Shown here: positions 4,154-19,108 of the stretch, in pieces
How the letters are laid out: each line of letters begins with the position of its first letter
Position numbering within the stretch: position 1 is the first letter of the stretch
Program-made: the position numbers and the translations under genes
The notes under the pieces: model-generated
Seen by the model: the letters and a program-made list of their open reading frames with translations, nothing else
Database searches by the model: none
Told to the model about the DNA's origin: nothing
UHGV virus genome: UHGV-1464116
Length of the DNA stretch: 22,575 nucleotides
From: a virus
Reading direction: 5' to 3' (one strand)

Positions 4154-5622
4154 TGGCACGAAACAAGCAATCCTCTCAGCGAACGGCACAGGCCACCGCT
4201 GACGGCTACGAGAACTTCGTCGCCCGCGTTGGGATGCAGACGCCTAACCAGCATTCAGCATCGACCTACCGGGCGAACTTCACCAGCCGCAACCGCATGC
4301 TGGTGGAATGGTCATATCGCGGTTCGTGGGTTATCGGTGAAGCGGTCGACGCTATCCCGGACGATATGACCCGAAAGGGCATTCGCATCACTTCGGAGAT
4401 TGACGCCAAAGACCGTGGCACCCTCGAAGCGCAACTGGATGAGTTGCAGATCTGGGATGCGCTGAACGACGTGCTGAAATGGTCGCGCCTCTACGGCGGC
4501 GCGGTCGGCTTCATCATGATCGAGGGGCAAGCACCAATGACCCCGCTGCGACTCGAAACCATTGGCGAGGGCAAGTTTAAGGGCATTCTCCCGCTCGACC
4601 GCTGGATGATTAACCCGGTGCTGACACGCCGCATTAAAGAGATGGGGCCGGACCTCGGCAAGCCTGAGTTTTACGACGTGGTGACCACCGCAACGGGCAT
4701 TCCGGCCTGGCGCATCCATCACAGCCGCCTGATCCGCTTTGATGGCGTCACGCTGCCATTCCAGCAGAAGATGACCGAAAACGAATGGGGAATGTCGGTT
4801 GTAGAGCGTATCTGGGATCGGCTTACTGCGTTCGATAGCGCTACTGTCGGCGCGGCGCAGCTGGTCTATAAAGCGCATCTGCGTACCTATAGCGTGGAGA
4901 AGTTGCGCGAGCTTATCGCGCTTGGAGGCCCGGCGTTCGAAGCGTTGCTGAAGAACATCGACCTGATCCGCCAGTTCCAGAGCAATGAAGGTATGACGCT
5001 CATGGACTCGCGGGATAAGTTCGAAACCCACCAGTACAGCTTTAGTGGTCTGGATGACATTCTTTCGCAGTTTGCTGAGCAGATCAGCGGTGCCGTTGGT
5101 ATCCCGCTGGTACGCCTGTTCGGTCAATCCCCGAAAGGCTTCTCTACTGGTGATGCAGACCTCGCCAACTATTACGACCGGGTGAGCTCATTGCAGGAGC
5201 GCCGCTTACGGCTGCCGATGCGCCGGATACTGGACATTATGCACCGCTCGGAACTCGGAAAGCCGCTGCCGGACGATTTCACGTTTGAGTTTAACCCGCT
5301 ATGGCAAATGTCAGACGTTGACCGATCAACGGTGGCCGTAAACACCACCAACGCGATCAGTACCGCGCTGGGCGACGGATTGATGACGCGTAAGGCGGCG
5401 ATGACCGACCTGCGCGAAAACTCTGACGTCACCGGCATCGGGGCATCCATTACCGACGAGGATATCGAGAATGCCGAAGACGAAGCGCCGCCAGGCATCG
5501 GCGAACTTGGCGACAACCCGCCAGAGCCGCCAGGCGGAGATCCGATATCGAACGAGCCTACGGCAGATAGCGCGGGCGGTCGGGGATATCGTAAATGGTC
5601 GCTACGATGGTTCAAACGATAG
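4153..5622 (+). CDS. Portal protein
   Basis: 489 aa; ATGA overlap with terminase stop; acidic Pro-rich C-terminal tail; position between terminase and Mu-F-like gene. Confidence 0.8.
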   Translation: MARNKQSSQRTAQATADGYENFVARVGMQTPNQHSASTYRANFTSRNRMLVEWSYRGSWVIGEAVDAIPDDMTRKGIRITSEIDAKDRGTLEAQLDELQIWDALNDVLKWSRLYGGAVGFIMIEGQAPMTPLRLETIGEGKFKGILPLDRWMINPVLTRRIKEMGPDLGKPEFYDVVTTATGIPAWRIHHSRLIRFDGVTLPFQQKMTENEWGMSVVERIWDRLTAFDSATVGAAQLVYKAHLRTYSVEKLRELIALGGPAFEALLKNIDLIRQFQSNEGMTLMDSRDKFETHQYSFSGLDDILSQFAEQISGAVGIPLVRLFGQSPKGFSTGDADLANYYDRVSSLQERRLRLPMRRILDIMHRSELGKPLPDDFTFEFNPLWQMSDVDRSTVAVNTTNAISTALGDGLMTRKAAMTDLRENSDVTGIGASITDEDIENAEDEAPPGIGELGDNPPEPPGGDPISNEPTADSAGGRGYRKWSLRWFKR

Positions 5623-16186: not shown

Positions 16187-17251
16187 ATGTCTCTTAACTG
16201 GATGCGCCATTTTGAGCTGCAACTGTTGGACCAGAACGGGCAGGGCGTTTCCCTGTCTGACTTTAAGGTCACGTTCCAGATCGAGTGGGCAGACACACGC
16301 TGGCCGCGCGTGGCGAACGTGAAAATTTACAACCTTTCGACCGATACCACGAACAAGATACTGGGGCAGGAGTTTGCCAAAATTCGCATCATTGCCGGGT
16401 ATGACGGTATAGCGCCGGATGTTGATGCGAGCCAGGTCGGCGTCGCCCGAGAGATTTCACCAGACCAGATAGGGCAGGTGAACGGTCAGAACTACGGCCT
16501 GATTTTTGACGGTGATATTCGCTTTACCGTAACCGGGAAGGACAACATTACCGATTCCTGGGTGTTGATTCAGGCTATTGGAGATCATGAAGCGTTCCTC
16601 TACGCGACTACCATCACTACGCTTGCCGCTGGCTATACCGTTGCGGATCTGCACCGGGCGACGATGCAGGATTTCAACGTGTTCGGCGTGACACAGGGCA
16701 TTACCGGCGATTTTCCTGATACCGTGTTTCCTCGTGGCCGCGCGATTTACTCATCCACTCGTAACGTGATGGATAATATTGCAGCGCAGTGCAAAGCGAC
16801 ATGGCAGCTGGTGGATGGTCAGGTCCAGATGGTGCCGGAGGATAAATATATTCACGAAGCCATTGTGTTGAATGCCAATACTGGCCTGATTGGTATGCCG
16901 CAACAGACGATGGGCGGCGGCGTAAACGTGCGGTGCCTGATAAACCCAAACATCCGCATTAATGGTCTTATCCAGCTCGATCAGGCTTCGGTGTACCGCG
17001 CGTCGCTCGGTAATAGCGAAATCGCACAGTCGCCCGGGCGTATCACCGAAACTGAAGAGAATGGCAACCGTGTGCTGACCGGTACGACGTCACAGGCTGC
17101 CAGCATTGCGACGGATGGCGTTTATATCGTCAAAGCTATCGACTATACTGGCGACACCAGAGGTCAGGCGTGGTACATGGATTTGATGTGCTTTGCGCGT
17201 GGCAGTCGTGAATTATATAGTCAGTCGACGCTCCAAAAAGTACAGGTGTGA
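16187..17251 (+). CDS. Baseplate hub-like protein (P2 gpD / Mu gp44-like position)
   Basis: 354 aa; positioned before the spike protein as in Mu-like baseplates; assignment by synteny and size. Confidence 0.55.
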   Translation: MSLNWMRHFELQLLDQNGQGVSLSDFKVTFQIEWADTRWPRVANVKIYNLSTDTTNKILGQEFAKIRIIAGYDGIAPDVDASQVGVAREISPDQIGQVNGQNYGLIFDGDIRFTVTGKDNITDSWVLIQAIGDHEAFLYATTITTLAAGYTVADLHRATMQDFNVFGVTQGITGDFPDTVFPRGRAIYSSTRNVMDNIAAQCKATWQLVDGQVQMVPEDKYIHEAIVLNANTGLIGMPQQTMGGGVNVRCLINPNIRINGLIQLDQASVYRASLGNSEIAQSPGRITETEENGNRVLTGTTSQAASIATDGVYIVKAIDYTGDTRGQAWYMDLMCFARGSRELYSQSTLQKVQV

Positions 17252-17252
17252 T

Positions 17253-17603
17253 ATGACAAAAATTAGGAATGTTATCTGCGGAGCCGTTCTTTCGTTGGTC
17301 GGAGCTTCAACTGCAATGGCTGATACCCAATGCGGGCCATATCGCCTCACCGCAGGTAATGATGGTTTTATGCATATTAATGGTGTAAAGCCAGAAAACC
17401 AGAAAATGACCTTTCTGAAAGCCAAGGAAGATTATCAAAATCTCAAGATGGAATGGACGGTTGCAACTAATCAACCCGGCCGCTGGGTTGGGCTTGAGTA
17501 CATCAAGCGCAACGGCAAAGCCATTCTCAACGCACAGTGGCTGCAAGCCAGCATGGATTCGCCGCGTCAGTATGCAACATACGACTGCCGAAAAGTAAAA
17601 TAG
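17253..17603 (+). CDS. Secreted (signal-peptide) protein of unknown function, accessory/moron gene
   Basis: Track ORF 17193..17603; ATG 17253 gives MTKIRNVICGAVLSLVGASTAMA|DTQC.. with a typical Sec signal and AXA cleavage site; two Cys in mature part; lower GC than flanking tail genes. Confidence 0.6.
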   Translation: MTKIRNVICGAVLSLVGASTAMADTQCGPYRLTAGNDGFMHINGVKPENQKMTFLKAKEDYQNLKMEWTVATNQPGRWVGLEYIKRNGKAILNAQWLQASMDSPRQYATYDCRKVK

Positions 17604-17621
17604 CCCGCCAGATAGGCGGGC
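17603..17621 (-). terminator. Hairpin terminator between convergent accessory genes
   Basis: GCCCGCC-AGATA-GGCGGGC perfect 7-bp stem; on the minus strand it is followed by CTATTTTACTTTT, 5 nt downstream of the DUF4236 gene stop. Confidence 0.5.
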
Positions 17622-17626
17622 ATGCG

Positions 17627-17917
17627 TCAAAAATATTGAGCTTTAATTATAATAAACACAATAATTACGAACAGGATGTTTCTAATTATTTTTTGCTTAT
17701 GAGTAAGTTGTTTTTTTTCTGTCGATTTCCCGGGAGAGTAAAGGTTAGTGGTATGCGACAGCCCCGTGCCGGGAAGGCCATTTGTCATCTTTACGCCTTT
17801 TTTTCCGATGTTAATGGTGGAACCTTTACCACCAATTGAAGTGCTTACTCCGCTTTTACTAATGTTGATCGCGAGTCCGGGCGCAATCCGGATTCTTTTA
17901 CGAAATCTAAATCCCAT
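17627..17917 (-). CDS. DUF4236-like small membrane protein
   Basis: N-terminus MGFRFRKRIRIAPGLAINISKSGVSTSIGGKG...GLPGTGLSHT matches the DUF4236 signature as I recall it; C-terminal hydrophobic helix ILFVIIVFIII; AGGAG 6 nt upstream of ATG; very AT-rich codon usage. Confidence 0.7.
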   Translation of the reverse strand: MGFRFRKRIRIAPGLAINISKSGVSTSIGGKGSTINIGKKGVKMTNGLPGTGLSHTTNLYSPGKSTEKKQLTHKQKIIRNILFVIIVFIIIKAQYF

Positions 17918-18104
17918 TTGTTACTCCTGTAGTCAATAATGCGATGGTGCAGGTCCACTCTATGGCGGCTTCATGGCTGAAATTGATTTTCAATGCTTAC
18001 TTGTTGCAAACATATCCTAATACACCTTGTGAATGTGTGCCATTGCAGCGGAAAAGCCTTACTTCACACTGATGTAGCTTAGTTACTAAGAGATAATTGA
18101 TACC

Positions 18105-18128
18105 AAACCAGCTTCGGCTGGTTTTTTT
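18105..18128 (+). terminator. Strong intrinsic terminator immediately upstream of the spike gene
   Basis: AAACCAGC-TTCG-GCTGGTTT followed by TTTTTTT; UUCG tetraloop. Confidence 0.55.
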
Positions 18129-18139
18129 ATGGGGGTTTT

Positions 18140-18880
18140 ATGCCAATTCCAACTCAATCACAGATCGGGGGTGAGCAGCAGACCGCGCAGGCCATTGCCG
18201 ATTCGGTGTCTACCCAGATGCGCGTAGCGATGCCCGGCATCATTCAGTCGTTCGATCCTGACACTGTTACCTGCACAGTAGAGGTAGCGCTTCGCGGTAT
18301 TGTTGGCGATGGCTCCACCGAATTAAAACCGCTGGTGGATGTGCCGGTTATCTTCCCGCGCGGCGGCGGTTGCACGCTGACCTTTCCGGTAAAAGAAGGC
18401 GACGAGTGCCTGCTGATCTTTGCCGACCGTTGCATCGATTTCTGGTGGCAGAGCGGCGGCGTTCAGGAGACCGTCGATCCGCGACAGCATGACTTATCTG
18501 ATGCGTTCGCCATCGTTGGCCCGCAGTCGCAAGCACAGAAAATCAGCGGTATCAGTACCAGCGCCGCGCAGCTGCGAACCGATGATGGTGCGGCGTTCGT
18601 AGAGGTTGCCGCAGGACATAACATCACCGTTCAAACACCGGGCCAGCTCACGGCTACGGCTGAAGGTGGAACGACAATCACATCCCCGACTATCACGCTG
18701 AACGGCAACGTAACGATTAATGGCAATCTGTCTCAGGGAATGGGCGAAAGTGGCGGTACTGCGACGATGCTTGGGCCGGTGACGGTGACTAACGATGTGA
18801 AGGCTGGAGGAAAGAGCCTCATCCAGCATACCCATGGCGGTGTGCAGAATGGCAGCGGGAATACTACCGCGCCTAATTAA
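18140..18880 (+). CDS. Baseplate central spike protein (gpV / Mu gp45-like)
   Basis: 246 aa; Gly/Thr-rich beta-helix-like C-terminal region (TITSPTITLNGNVTINGNL) and terminal HTHGG motif typical of gpV-type spikes. Confidence 0.7.
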   Translation: MPIPTQSQIGGEQQTAQAIADSVSTQMRVAMPGIIQSFDPDTVTCTVEVALRGIVGDGSTELKPLVDVPVIFPRGGGCTLTFPVKEGDECLLIFADRCIDFWWQSGGVQETVDPRQHDLSDAFAIVGPQSQAQKISGISTSAAQLRTDDGAAFVEVAAGHNITVQTPGQLTATAEGGTTITSPTITLNGNVTINGNLSQGMGESGGTATMLGPVTVTNDVKAGGKSLIQHTHGGVQNGSGNTTAPN

Positions 18881-18896
18881 AAACTACCAAACAGAC

Positions 18897-18932
18897 AAAA
18901 GCCCCGGGTGCGCTAACACTTCGGGGCTTTTT
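18897..18932. terminator. Intrinsic terminator after spike gene (possibly bidirectional)
   Basis: AAAAGCCCCG...CGGGGCTTTT 10-bp stem with U-rich tails on both strands. Confidence 0.5.
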
Positions 18933-18967
18933 ACTTTCTGCACCTTGAGGATAGCAAGGGAGAATAT

Positions 18968-19105
18968 GTGATTAATTTTAGCAAACTGATACGGGAGTTG
19001 CGAGTCATGGGCGAAAAACTACCCAACTGGAAATTCTTCCTCATCTGGGCCGTGTTCTTTTTATTCGGTCTGTCAAGCGTTATTAGCGCTATACGCTGGT
19101 GGTGA
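18968..19105 (+). CDS. Candidate small membrane protein (45 aa from GTG; 32 aa from ATG 19007)
   Basis: AGGGAG 4-6 nt upstream of GTG 18968; product contains a single hydrophobic helix WKFFLIWAVFFLFGLSSVISAI; stop at 19103-19105, 3 nt before the next gene ATG. Not in the ORF track because it is under 60 aa. Confidence 0.3.
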   Translation: MINFSKLIRELRVMGEKLPNWKFFLIWAVFFLFGLSSVISAIRWW

Positions 19106-19108
19106 TTT

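Follow-up and report, generated by a model that had tools for sequence, protein, structure and literature searches.

A cargo slot between the baseplate hub and spike genes of a lambdoid prophage and its possible role in superinfection exclusion

In phage T4 exclusion relies on a pair of proteins, Imm in the inner membrane and Sp (Spackle), which resides in the periplasm and targets the lysozyme of the tail tip; Spackle is helical, and imm and sp are early genes of this virulent phage. At the outer membrane the exclusion lipoproteins Cor of phages phi80 and N15 and Llp of phage T5 block FhuA, protecting the infected or lysogenic cell. The founding moron, gp15 of phage HK97, is an inner-membrane exclusion protein that is expressed from the prophage and blocks genome entry depending on the incoming tail (PMC3594210). 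Moreover, temperate phages such as P2 have accessory hotspots (Z/fun and old/tin), where alternative defence or toxin-antitoxin cargo is exchanged at a fixed position (bioRxiv 10.1101/2024.10.15.618418). Here we analyse positions 17253-18139 of the viral DNA UHGV-1464116, a stretch of 22.6 kb that was analysed as a whole and is called the window in the following. This region is the gap between the genes of the baseplate hub and of the membrane-puncturing spike. It contains two small genes, open reading frame 1 (ORF1) and, on the opposite strand, a gene for a protein of the DUF4236 family, and it may serve as an expression slot for envelope proteins that are not part of the virion.

Architecture of the hub-spike slot

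The order of the elements in the slot, i.e. hub 3' end, ORF1, variable cargo site, conserved terminator hairpin and spike, is close to certain. ORF1 and the terminator are fixed across the phage group, whereas the cargo site is variable and empty in some relatives. The relatives come from three sources: a DNA search of Escherichia coli genomes, which yielded 52 genomes, 19 of them covering the whole query; a search with the hub protein, restricted to one genome per species, which yielded 21 loci with hub identities of 53%-97%; and exact look-ups of DUF4236 homologues, which added further loci. The 21 species loci include Pantoea, Shimwellia, Enterobacter, Rahnella, Yersinia, Serratia, Phytobacter, Kosakonia, Trabulsiella and Erwinia and span at least 12 genera of the Enterobacterales. 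Directly 3' of the hub gene an ORF1 homologue (42-99% identity; tblastn and ORF listing) is present in 19 of these 21 loci, whatever follows it, as well as in every E. coli relative inspected, and it is kept after the hub down to 53% hub identity, with or without cargo. Seventeen of the 19 homologues are stand-alone proteins of 111-122 aa, and in the remaining two (L009 and L017) the ORF1 domain forms the C-terminal part of a lipoprotein of 288-296 aa. The two loci without ORF1 are L008, where the contig ends, and L012, which has an unrelated lipoprotein of 379 aa in the same place.

Between ORF1 and the spike gene the relatives differ widely, the interval ranging from 65 bp up to 1.8 kb. The loci from Rahnella (L010) and Pantoea (L023), with only 65 bp, represent the slot without cargo. 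In other loci the cargo consists of Phd/Doc toxin-antitoxin pairs (L002 2387-3207 and L011 3106-3701, Phd/YefM-Doc), a coiled-coil protein of 409 aa with a T5orf172/MUG113 domain (L016 2829-4058), an EACC1-domain protein encoded on the minus strand (L004, 2372-2722, and L007), a DUF7946 (L013) or a DUF4282 protein (L020), or one of several pairs of unknown proteins, among them a recurring pair of ~250-263 aa and ~130-165 aa that has no Pfam match (L017, L021 and L026). All of this cargo is located between the ORF1 stop codon and the conserved hairpin on the spike side. A preliminary description of the window had suggested a defence-type module at this site, and the toxin-antitoxin and defence-type cargo in the same slot of relatives supports this view of the site.

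The DUF4236 gene is the cargo of the window. In relatives lacking this gene the DNA homology to the window ends sharply at 17587-17602 and resumes equally sharply at 18107-18120, and the acquired unit therefore extends from about 17603 to 18106. L002-L004, L006 and L007 lack this stretch, both flanks being 93-98% identical to the window. The unit of 0.5 kb comprises a minus-strand terminator, the DUF4236 gene and ~190 bp upstream of it, and has a GC content of 0.41 (0.39 for the DUF4236 gene alone). The preliminary description had regarded the two genes as a single acquired accessory cassette of the moron type, but the breakpoints confine the insert to the DUF4236 part. For the DUF4236 gene the idea of an acquired element holds, as close relatives lack it at this site, it carries a terminator of its own, its base composition is divergent (GC 0.41 as compared to 0.54) and it is antisense to the late operon. 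ORF1, in contrast, is present at the same site in close relatives and is a fixed resident, despite its moron-like low GC content, candidate promoter and terminator. Conservation at this position in related phages had been named beforehand as an observation that would speak against an accessory cassette; this is what we find for ORF1 (19 of 21 loci), yet ORF1 appears to be an exported protein and not a part of the virion.

The terminator on the spike side belongs to the backbone as well. A hairpin is located within 50 nt 5' of the spike start in all 70 loci examined (35 distinct versions), including the cargo-less L010 and L023, and is followed by a run of 6-7 T in most versions, the Klebsiella versions (L097 and L031 in the alignment) being devoid of the T-run. 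Its stem occurs in compensatory versions (ACCCGC/GCGGGT, AACCAGC/GCTGGTT, AGCCGC/GCGGCT and CCCTCAC/GTGAGGG). In 31 aligned versions 94% of the cells are paired and four of the seven pairs are changed on both sides, values that were reached by none of 500 shuffles; moreover, shifting the partner columns collapses the pairing. The window has the UUCG-loop hairpin and T-run described before, but this element does not close a cassette, as it is found 5' of the spike in every relative, cargo-less ones included. The other hairpin, at the left end of the insert, had been considered a terminator shared by both genes; it is present and is terminator-like on the minus strand only. A weak Rfam match to isrK, a small RNA of Salmonella prophages, covers 18045-18127 on the plus strand (E 0.016; 23.4 bits, the gathering score being 50). 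The conserved terminator at its end is the probable cause of this match, and no plus-strand promoter was found upstream of the matched stretch.

The window represents the late region of a lambdoid prophage whose tail is contractile, running from the terminase, portal and head genes via sheath and tube and a tape-measure protein bearing an SLT domain to the baseplate. The gene order matches that of the 98%-identical E. coli prophage L005, which has a Q-type antitermination gene and lysis genes upstream. Both ORFs, the hairpins and the flanking hub and spike genes were found where the preliminary description had placed them (Table 1), and the gap is indeed AT-rich: with a GC content of 0.435, as compared to 0.54 in the tail module, it is the lowest-GC 887-bp stretch of the window, equally low values being found in 0.05% of the stretches of this length. 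Downstream of the spike gene positions 18881-19108 form a second small insert, extending from the spike stop codon to the start of the sheath-initiator gene; in L001 these two genes abut. It contains a terminator-like hairpin (~18898-18935, AAAGCCCCG...CGGGGCTTT and a T-run) and a short hydrophobic ORF without Pfam match, which starts with GTG at 18968 or ATG at 19008 and ends at 19105 (45 or 32 aa, MGEKLPNWKFFLIWAVFFLFGLSSVISAIRWW). The same 228 bp occur in L006, L060, L063 and L069, and a partial copy is found in Klebsiella L028.

Table 1. Features in and around the hub-spike slot; positions are those of the window.
Feature	Position	Strand	Remarks
Baseplate hub gene, left flank	16187-17251	+	phrog_196, E 1e-82; PF22759 (E217_GP41), 26.7 bits
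Sigma-70-like promoter candidate, TTTATA-17-TATACT	17121-17149	+	inside hub 3' end, ~100 nt 5' of ORF1; consensus scan
ORF1, putative exported protein of 116 aa (93 aa mature)	17253-17603	+	fixed resident of the hub-spike slot
Intrinsic-terminator-like hairpin, left end of insert	17603-17621	-	7 G-C pairs, then TATTTTACTT on the minus strand
DUF4236 gene, 96 aa	17627-17917	-	Pfam match PF14020; predicted basic beta-meander (residues 1-60), linker and C-terminal membrane tail anchor
DUF4236 gene upstream region and leader, right part of insert	17918-18104	-	~50-nt leader shared with a DUF4236 gene of a lambda-like prophage
UUCG-loop hairpin and T-run	18105-18131	+	directly 5' of spike ribosome-binding site; hairpin 18105-18124, T7 run
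Membrane-puncturing spike gene, right flank	18140-18880	+	spike N-terminal domain PF18352, E 1e-41; Apex motif PF18946

The putative exported protein ORF1

ORF1 starts 2 nt past the hub stop codon. Its N-terminus has the pattern of a Sec signal peptide with a signal-peptidase-I site, i.e. a charged start (MTKIRN, +2), a hydrophobic stretch (VICGAVLSLVGAS) and the motif TAMA/D, with a slash marking the presumed cleavage site, in line with the signal peptide reported in the preliminary description. The window protein has no lipobox (L-x-x-C), lipoboxes being found in the fusion variants of L009 and L017 only. In an alignment of 42 members the N-terminal 20-25 residues are freely variable, but always proceed from charged to hydrophobic to AxA/D, and conservation of the mature part sets in at D-x-Q-C-G. 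The alignment shows invariant Cys residues at positions 27 and 112 (Cys27 and Cys112), near both ends of the mature chain, which suggests a closing disulfide. Structure prediction yields a confident model of an 8-stranded beta-barrel, whose closest known counterpart may be the 8-stranded up-and-down barrels of the avidin/streptavidin type. Four observations lead us to infer that ORF1 is exported: its signal pattern, its pair of Cys residues, the variants fused behind a lipoprotein signal and the presence of other exported proteins in its place in L012 and L033. As the tail assembles in the cytoplasm, where an exported protein cannot join it, ORF1 would not be part of the tail.

The lipoproteins in the slot of other species deserve mention in their own right. 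Those with the ORF1 barrel are encoded in Enterobacter bugandensis (L009 7098-7988, lipobox LVTGC) and Phytobacter ursingii (L017 7074-7940, lipobox IVAGC), whereas the lipoprotein of Serratia sp. PL17 (L012 7067-8206) is related to them in its N-terminal region and has no ORF1 domain; none of the three has a Pfam match. Pseudomonas phage E217 also has a gene between hub (gp41) and tail tip (gp43), gp42 (L126 7595-8128, 177 aa). We considered gp42 as a parallel to ORF1 and rejected it, as it has no signal peptide, is unrelated and is absent from the virion proteins named in the structure paper.

ORF1 differs from its neighbours in composition and in rate of change. Its GC content is 0.42-0.50 as compared to 0.51-0.57 for the hub gene, being lower than that of the hub in the large majority of loci, and it diverges faster, e.g. 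between L006 and the window hub and spike are both 97% identical and ORF1 only 64%. The differences are concentrated in the signal peptide and the first ~40 codons. Among prophages that are otherwise 95-97% identical, positions 17221-17375 form a short, sharply divergent patch, which covers the hub end, the ORF1 signal peptide and the first ~40 mature codons and may reflect either a segment that sets the specificity of ORF1 or a scar left by recombination. Protein identities had also led us to consider that the DUF4236 gene separates from ORF1 by recombination. We dropped this idea in view of the DNA breakpoints, since only the first ~40 ORF1 codons differ and the rest is contiguous with the insert.

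ORF1 belongs to a small family: only 59 clusters (at 50% identity) emerged when 1.84 billion representative proteins were searched with its profile, and the three long matches, Flg_new or WD40 repeat proteins, were rejected as repeat artefacts. Judged by these homologues the family appears to be confined to prophages and temperate phages of the Enterobacterales, its carriers including Klebsiella phages ST11-OXA48phi15.1, GZ7, RCIP0034 and Mulock, Salmonella phage SEN34, Escherichia phage vB_EcoM-683R1, Citrobacter phage Omnitron and Yersinia phage YP3. ORF1 has no match in Pfam, NCBIfam or PADLOC. One homologue is named "STY1065/STY2022 family phage-derived protein" in RefSeq, but no NCBIfam hidden Markov model (HMM) matched ORF1 and a literature search on the name gave nothing relevant. 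Fold searches with the model returned only generic small barrels from the Protein Data Bank (PDB) and nothing below E 0.001 among viral models, and neither the family HMMs nor the top structural matches pointed to the periplasmic lysozyme inhibitors MliC/PliC.

A promoter candidate lies in the hub gene upstream of ORF1 (Table 1), and the synonymous sites of the hub are consistent with a constraint on it. Among 174 degenerate codons for conserved residues, compared across 27 loci, seven use one codon in at least 95% of the loci, and two of these seven lie in the promoter hexamers, i.e. Tyr313 (TAT, 27/27) and the four-fold degenerate Thr321 (ACT, 26/27). Tyr320 is TAT in 25/27 loci, and neighbouring hub codons are freely variable. 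By a rough hypergeometric calculation the probability that two of the five hexamer codons fall into this set of seven is ~0.015. The candidate may thus function as promoter of a unit of promoter, ORF1, cargo and terminator that would be transcribable in the lysogen.

The DUF4236 protein and its genomic neighbourhood

The 96-aa protein matches the Pfam family DUF4236 (PF14020) with E 1.8e-20 and 73.6 bits as compared to a cut-off of 27, residues 3-55 covering profile positions 1-54 of 55. The traits that the preliminary description had listed for this gene, a minus-strand ORF of 96 aa, DUF4236 similarity, a Shine-Dalgarno sequence (AGGAG, 7 nt 5' of the ATG) and a hydrophobic C-terminal tail (IIRNILFVIIVFIIIKAQYF), are all present. 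The AlphaFold2 model shows a six-stranded beta meander and a helix formed by residues 73-95 (pLDDT 82), and residues 1-76 carry a net charge of +14. The architecture is constant among 45 short homologues: residues 1-55 form a conserved domain, which a variable linker of low complexity joins to a hydrophobic C-terminal stretch that is conserved in character, not in sequence. The protein is therefore best described as putatively tail-anchored, with a cytoplasmic N-terminal domain and an outward C-terminus; variants from Vibrio and Photobacterium have an SH3_3 domain C-terminal of the helix, which fits this N-in, C-out topology. With a Sec-type N-terminus in ORF1 and a hydrophobic C-terminal tail in the DUF4236 protein both products would be targeted to the envelope, as had been proposed. 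Pfam, PHROGs and NCBIfam scans with the 96-aa protein gave DUF4236-type families only and no similarity to gp15/YebO. A fold search with its model returned nothing but fragments of outer-membrane barrels and of RHS shells, which we take as a generic curved beta-meander, and the literature on DUF4236 is essentially nil, our search of 8 million papers yielding one incidental mention.

Upstream of the gene a leader of ~50 nt (17918-17975 on the minus strand, GCCGCCATAGAGTGGACCTGCACCATCGCAT...) is conserved with the DUF4236 gene of a lambda-like Leclercia prophage (L034, ~4950-5000) that shares no other backbone with the window. DUF4236 copies from Pseudomonas syringae and a metagenome (L036 and L041) have a different leader, which is conserved between these two. 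This suggests that the DUF4236 gene moves together with a regulatory leader.

DUF4236 homologues with 52-69% identity are found on the opposite strand between an ORF1-like gene and the spike gene in prophages of Klebsiella, Hafnia and other E. coli and in the cultured Klebsiella phages RCIP0034, GZ7 and Wanchaivirus. In these loci the hub is 62% and the sheath initiator 71% identical to that of the window, i.e. the DUF4236 protein has diverged about as much as the structural genes. In a scan of IMG/VR at least 550 viral contigs were found to encode DUF4236 relatives. Among the best 80 of these contigs the gene adjoins the spike gene in a very distant group of myoviruses (25-28% identity in baseplate J, 38-41% in the spike), where the next gene on the same strand encodes a signal-peptide protein; in L118 (6001-6961) and L109 (3479-4372) the gap between hub and spike is filled in this way, the DUF4236 protein having 167-177 aa. 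In lambda-like tails of the Leclercia type the DUF4236 gene separates gpM from the tape-measure gene, in those of the Pseudomonas syringae type it separates gpK from gpJ, and in two further siphovirus types, including that of Clostridioides difficile phage phiCD146, it lies between the tail chaperone and tape-measure genes. In all, at least four tail types have DUF4236 genes close to their tape-measure, tail-tip or spike genes. Some homologues are found on backbones of plasmids or integrative and conjugative elements (ICEs) or in chromosomal contexts.

To examine the neighbours, we called genes in a crude way in 31 non-redundant DUF4236 loci and applied a simple test for a hydrophobic N-terminus. 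Immediate neighbours of DUF4236 genes were exported-like in 17 of 59 cases as compared to 28 of 444 other genes of the same loci (odds ratio 6, p 1.5e-6), and leaving out the ORF1 lineage and dropping one duplicate lineage gave 9 of 41 (odds ratio 4.2, p 0.002). These partners are unrelated to each other, comprising lipoproteins (L041, L082, L096, L102 and L111) and signal-peptide proteins (L109, L114 and L111), and inspection by eye shows small proteins with an N-terminal anchor next to the gene in L034 and L036. As a trend, the DUF4236 membrane protein seems to travel with a small exported protein, which revives the idea of a pair at the functional level.

A possible role in superinfection exclusion and comparison with known systems

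Based on these findings we tentatively propose, as the most likely of the readings considered, though one that is far from assured, that the hub-spike gap is an expression slot for envelope proteins outside the virion and that both proteins act in superinfection exclusion, in analogy to HK97 gp15 or T4 Imm/Sp. In the lysogen ORF1 would be transcribed from the hub-embedded promoter, the transcript ending at the conserved terminator, and during lytic growth Q-type antiterminated late transcription would pass through this terminator. Expression of the locus in the lysogen is suggested by the antisense orientation of the DUF4236 gene, its own terminator and the embedded promoter candidate. ORF1 would be exported via Sec, cleaved after AMA and folded in the periplasm into a disulfide-closed 8-stranded beta-barrel, where it may meet the incoming tail tip, the spike or the tape-measure transglycosylase. 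The DUF4236 protein would insert its C-terminal helix into the inner membrane, with the very basic beta-meander domain facing the cytoplasm, and might block channel formation or DNA passage there. As such entry blocks are specific to the entry machinery, their linkage to tail-tip genes would make sense.

Several observations weigh against this proposal. PADLOC-DB 2.0 contains no defence family that matches ORF1 or the DUF4236 protein at E <=1. Being antisense to the late operon, the DUF4236 gene would require a separate promoter, but a consensus scan and an alignment of the upstream regions revealed no consensus sigma-70 promoter. The promoter candidate of ORF1 matches the consensus at 9 of 12 positions, and ~2.6 such sites are expected by chance in the scanned region, and the fixed synonymous sites could instead stem from a conserved recombination linker at a module boundary. 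ORF1 is directly after the hub in the same orientation and is certainly also made late together with the tail genes, which is equally compatible with a lytic role, and its allele type does not obviously track that of the spike. Finally, the neighbour test is rough and its sample of homologues is biased toward relatives of the query, and the association of DUF4236 with tail modules could merely mirror places that tolerate insertions.

Some phage genes are morons of the host-fitness kind, as exemplified by bor and lom of phage lambda. In the same way both genes might be passengers without a role in exclusion that contribute to host fitness, the envelope stress response, serum or bile resistance or adhesion, at a site that merely tolerates insertions. 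We regard this as rather unlikely, though it deserves serious consideration: the slot cargo of relatives is very diverse, neither protein matches PADLOC, short DUF4236 proteins also occur on plasmid and ICE backbones and in chromosomal contexts, and the tail-operon junctions that hold DUF4236 genes are known moron sites (PMC3594210). It would leave unexplained, however, the constant position of ORF1 while the hub diverges to ~53% identity, the repeated presence of DUF4236 genes next to those for tape measure, tip or spike in at least four tail architectures and the enrichment of exported proteins among their neighbours.

Somewhat less probable still is that ORF1 is a late periplasmic factor for lytic growth and the DUF4236 gene an unrelated insert. 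ORF1 might then restrain the SLT transglycosylase of the tape-measure protein or lytic enzymes of the host, or spare progeny from infected cells and debris like T5 Llp. Its start 2 nt past the hub stop codon in the same orientation, by which it must be part of the late transcript, a position as conserved as that of structural genes, and the SLT domain in the tape-measure protein of this tail all agree with such a role, but the conserved terminator after ORF1 and the constrained promoter-like site upstream rather fit independent expression, ORF1 has a lower GC content than the hub and diverges faster than its neighbours, and the family and fold searches yielded no known inhibitor of lysozymes or transglycosylases. 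A role of ORF1 in the virion or in assembly of the baseplate, with a hydrophobic N-terminus that is no signal peptide, is highly improbable, even though ORF1 strictly keeps its place between hub and spike in nearly all relatives and the distantly related phage E217 has a gene at the corresponding place. The variable N-terminus keeps its charge, hydrophobic core and AxA ahead of a mature part that starts at the conserved D-x-Q-C and has an invariant Cys pair, lipobox-fused versions exist, and unrelated exported proteins replace ORF1 in L012 and L033. Moreover, gp42 of E217 lacks an N-terminus of this kind and is missing from the virion proteins named, and an exported protein cannot join a tail assembled in the cytoplasm.

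Returning to exclusion, one may speculate further that a tail-anchored DUF4236 protein and a small, variable exported protein or lipoprotein constitute a widespread and so far undescribed two-layer entry-exclusion module of temperate phages. The DUF4236 protein would act at the inner membrane and its partner in the periplasm or at the outer membrane, and the module would accompany those tape-measure, tail-tip or spike genes that it counteracts. At the present locus ORF1 would be a fixed partner that, with the hub-embedded promoter and the conserved terminator, forms a permanent expression platform which also takes up other defence cargo. In this general form we consider the idea unlikely to hold.

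Tail-operon morons, exclusion proteins and phage cargo hotspots are already established kinds, to which the hub-spike locus adds two uncharacterised protein families and a conserved expression platform. If the proposal of exclusion is true, it would provide the first function for DUF4236, which would become a new family of proteins that block entry and are linked to tail-tip genes. It would also be relevant for the host range in phage therapy of Klebsiella and E. coli, as the cultured temperate phages GZ7, RCIP0034 and Wanchaivirus carry the same arrangement. Whatever the function, the region between hub and spike is a new cargo hotspot with ORF1 and the conserved terminator as landmarks and can be mined for defence genes, and ORF1 illustrates that a gene resembling a fresh insert can be an old fixed resident.

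The likeness to T4 Imm and Sp is one of arrangement, with a predicted membrane protein and a predicted small periplasmic protein, one for each of the two envelope layers through which the tail tip passes. It differs in that ORF1 is predicted to be a beta-barrel, whereas Spackle is helical, and in that imm and sp are early genes of a virulent phage. Against the Spackle family (PF25676) ORF1 showed neither an HMM match nor fold similarity, and neither window protein matched it in Pfam. The exported partner encoded in L118 gave a sub-threshold match to T4_Spackle (E 0.021, 15.8 bits as compared to a cut-off of 27), which lies mostly over the signal peptide and found no support in a PDB sequence search, so that we regard it as a hint only. 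With Cor and Llp the locus shares the encoding of exported phage proteins beside tail-tip or receptor-binding genes, but ORF1 of the window has a signal-peptidase-I site and no lipobox.

The slot resembles the hotspots of P2 in being a fixed site between conserved genes near the tail or baseplate where cargo is exchanged. It differs from them in phage group and in its hub/spike position, and it has a permanent gene for an apparently exported protein and a conserved terminator, between which the cargo is always found. As to HK97 gp15, the DUF4236 protein is likewise predicted to be a small single-pass inner-membrane protein, encoded by an add-on gene inside a tail operon, and the chaperone/tape-measure junction that holds gene 15 in HK97 is held by DUF4236 homologues in other siphoviruses. 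Nevertheless, the DUF4236 protein has no sequence relationship to gp15, and it has a putative basic cytoplasmic beta domain of ~60 residues of its own in addition to the C-terminal anchor.

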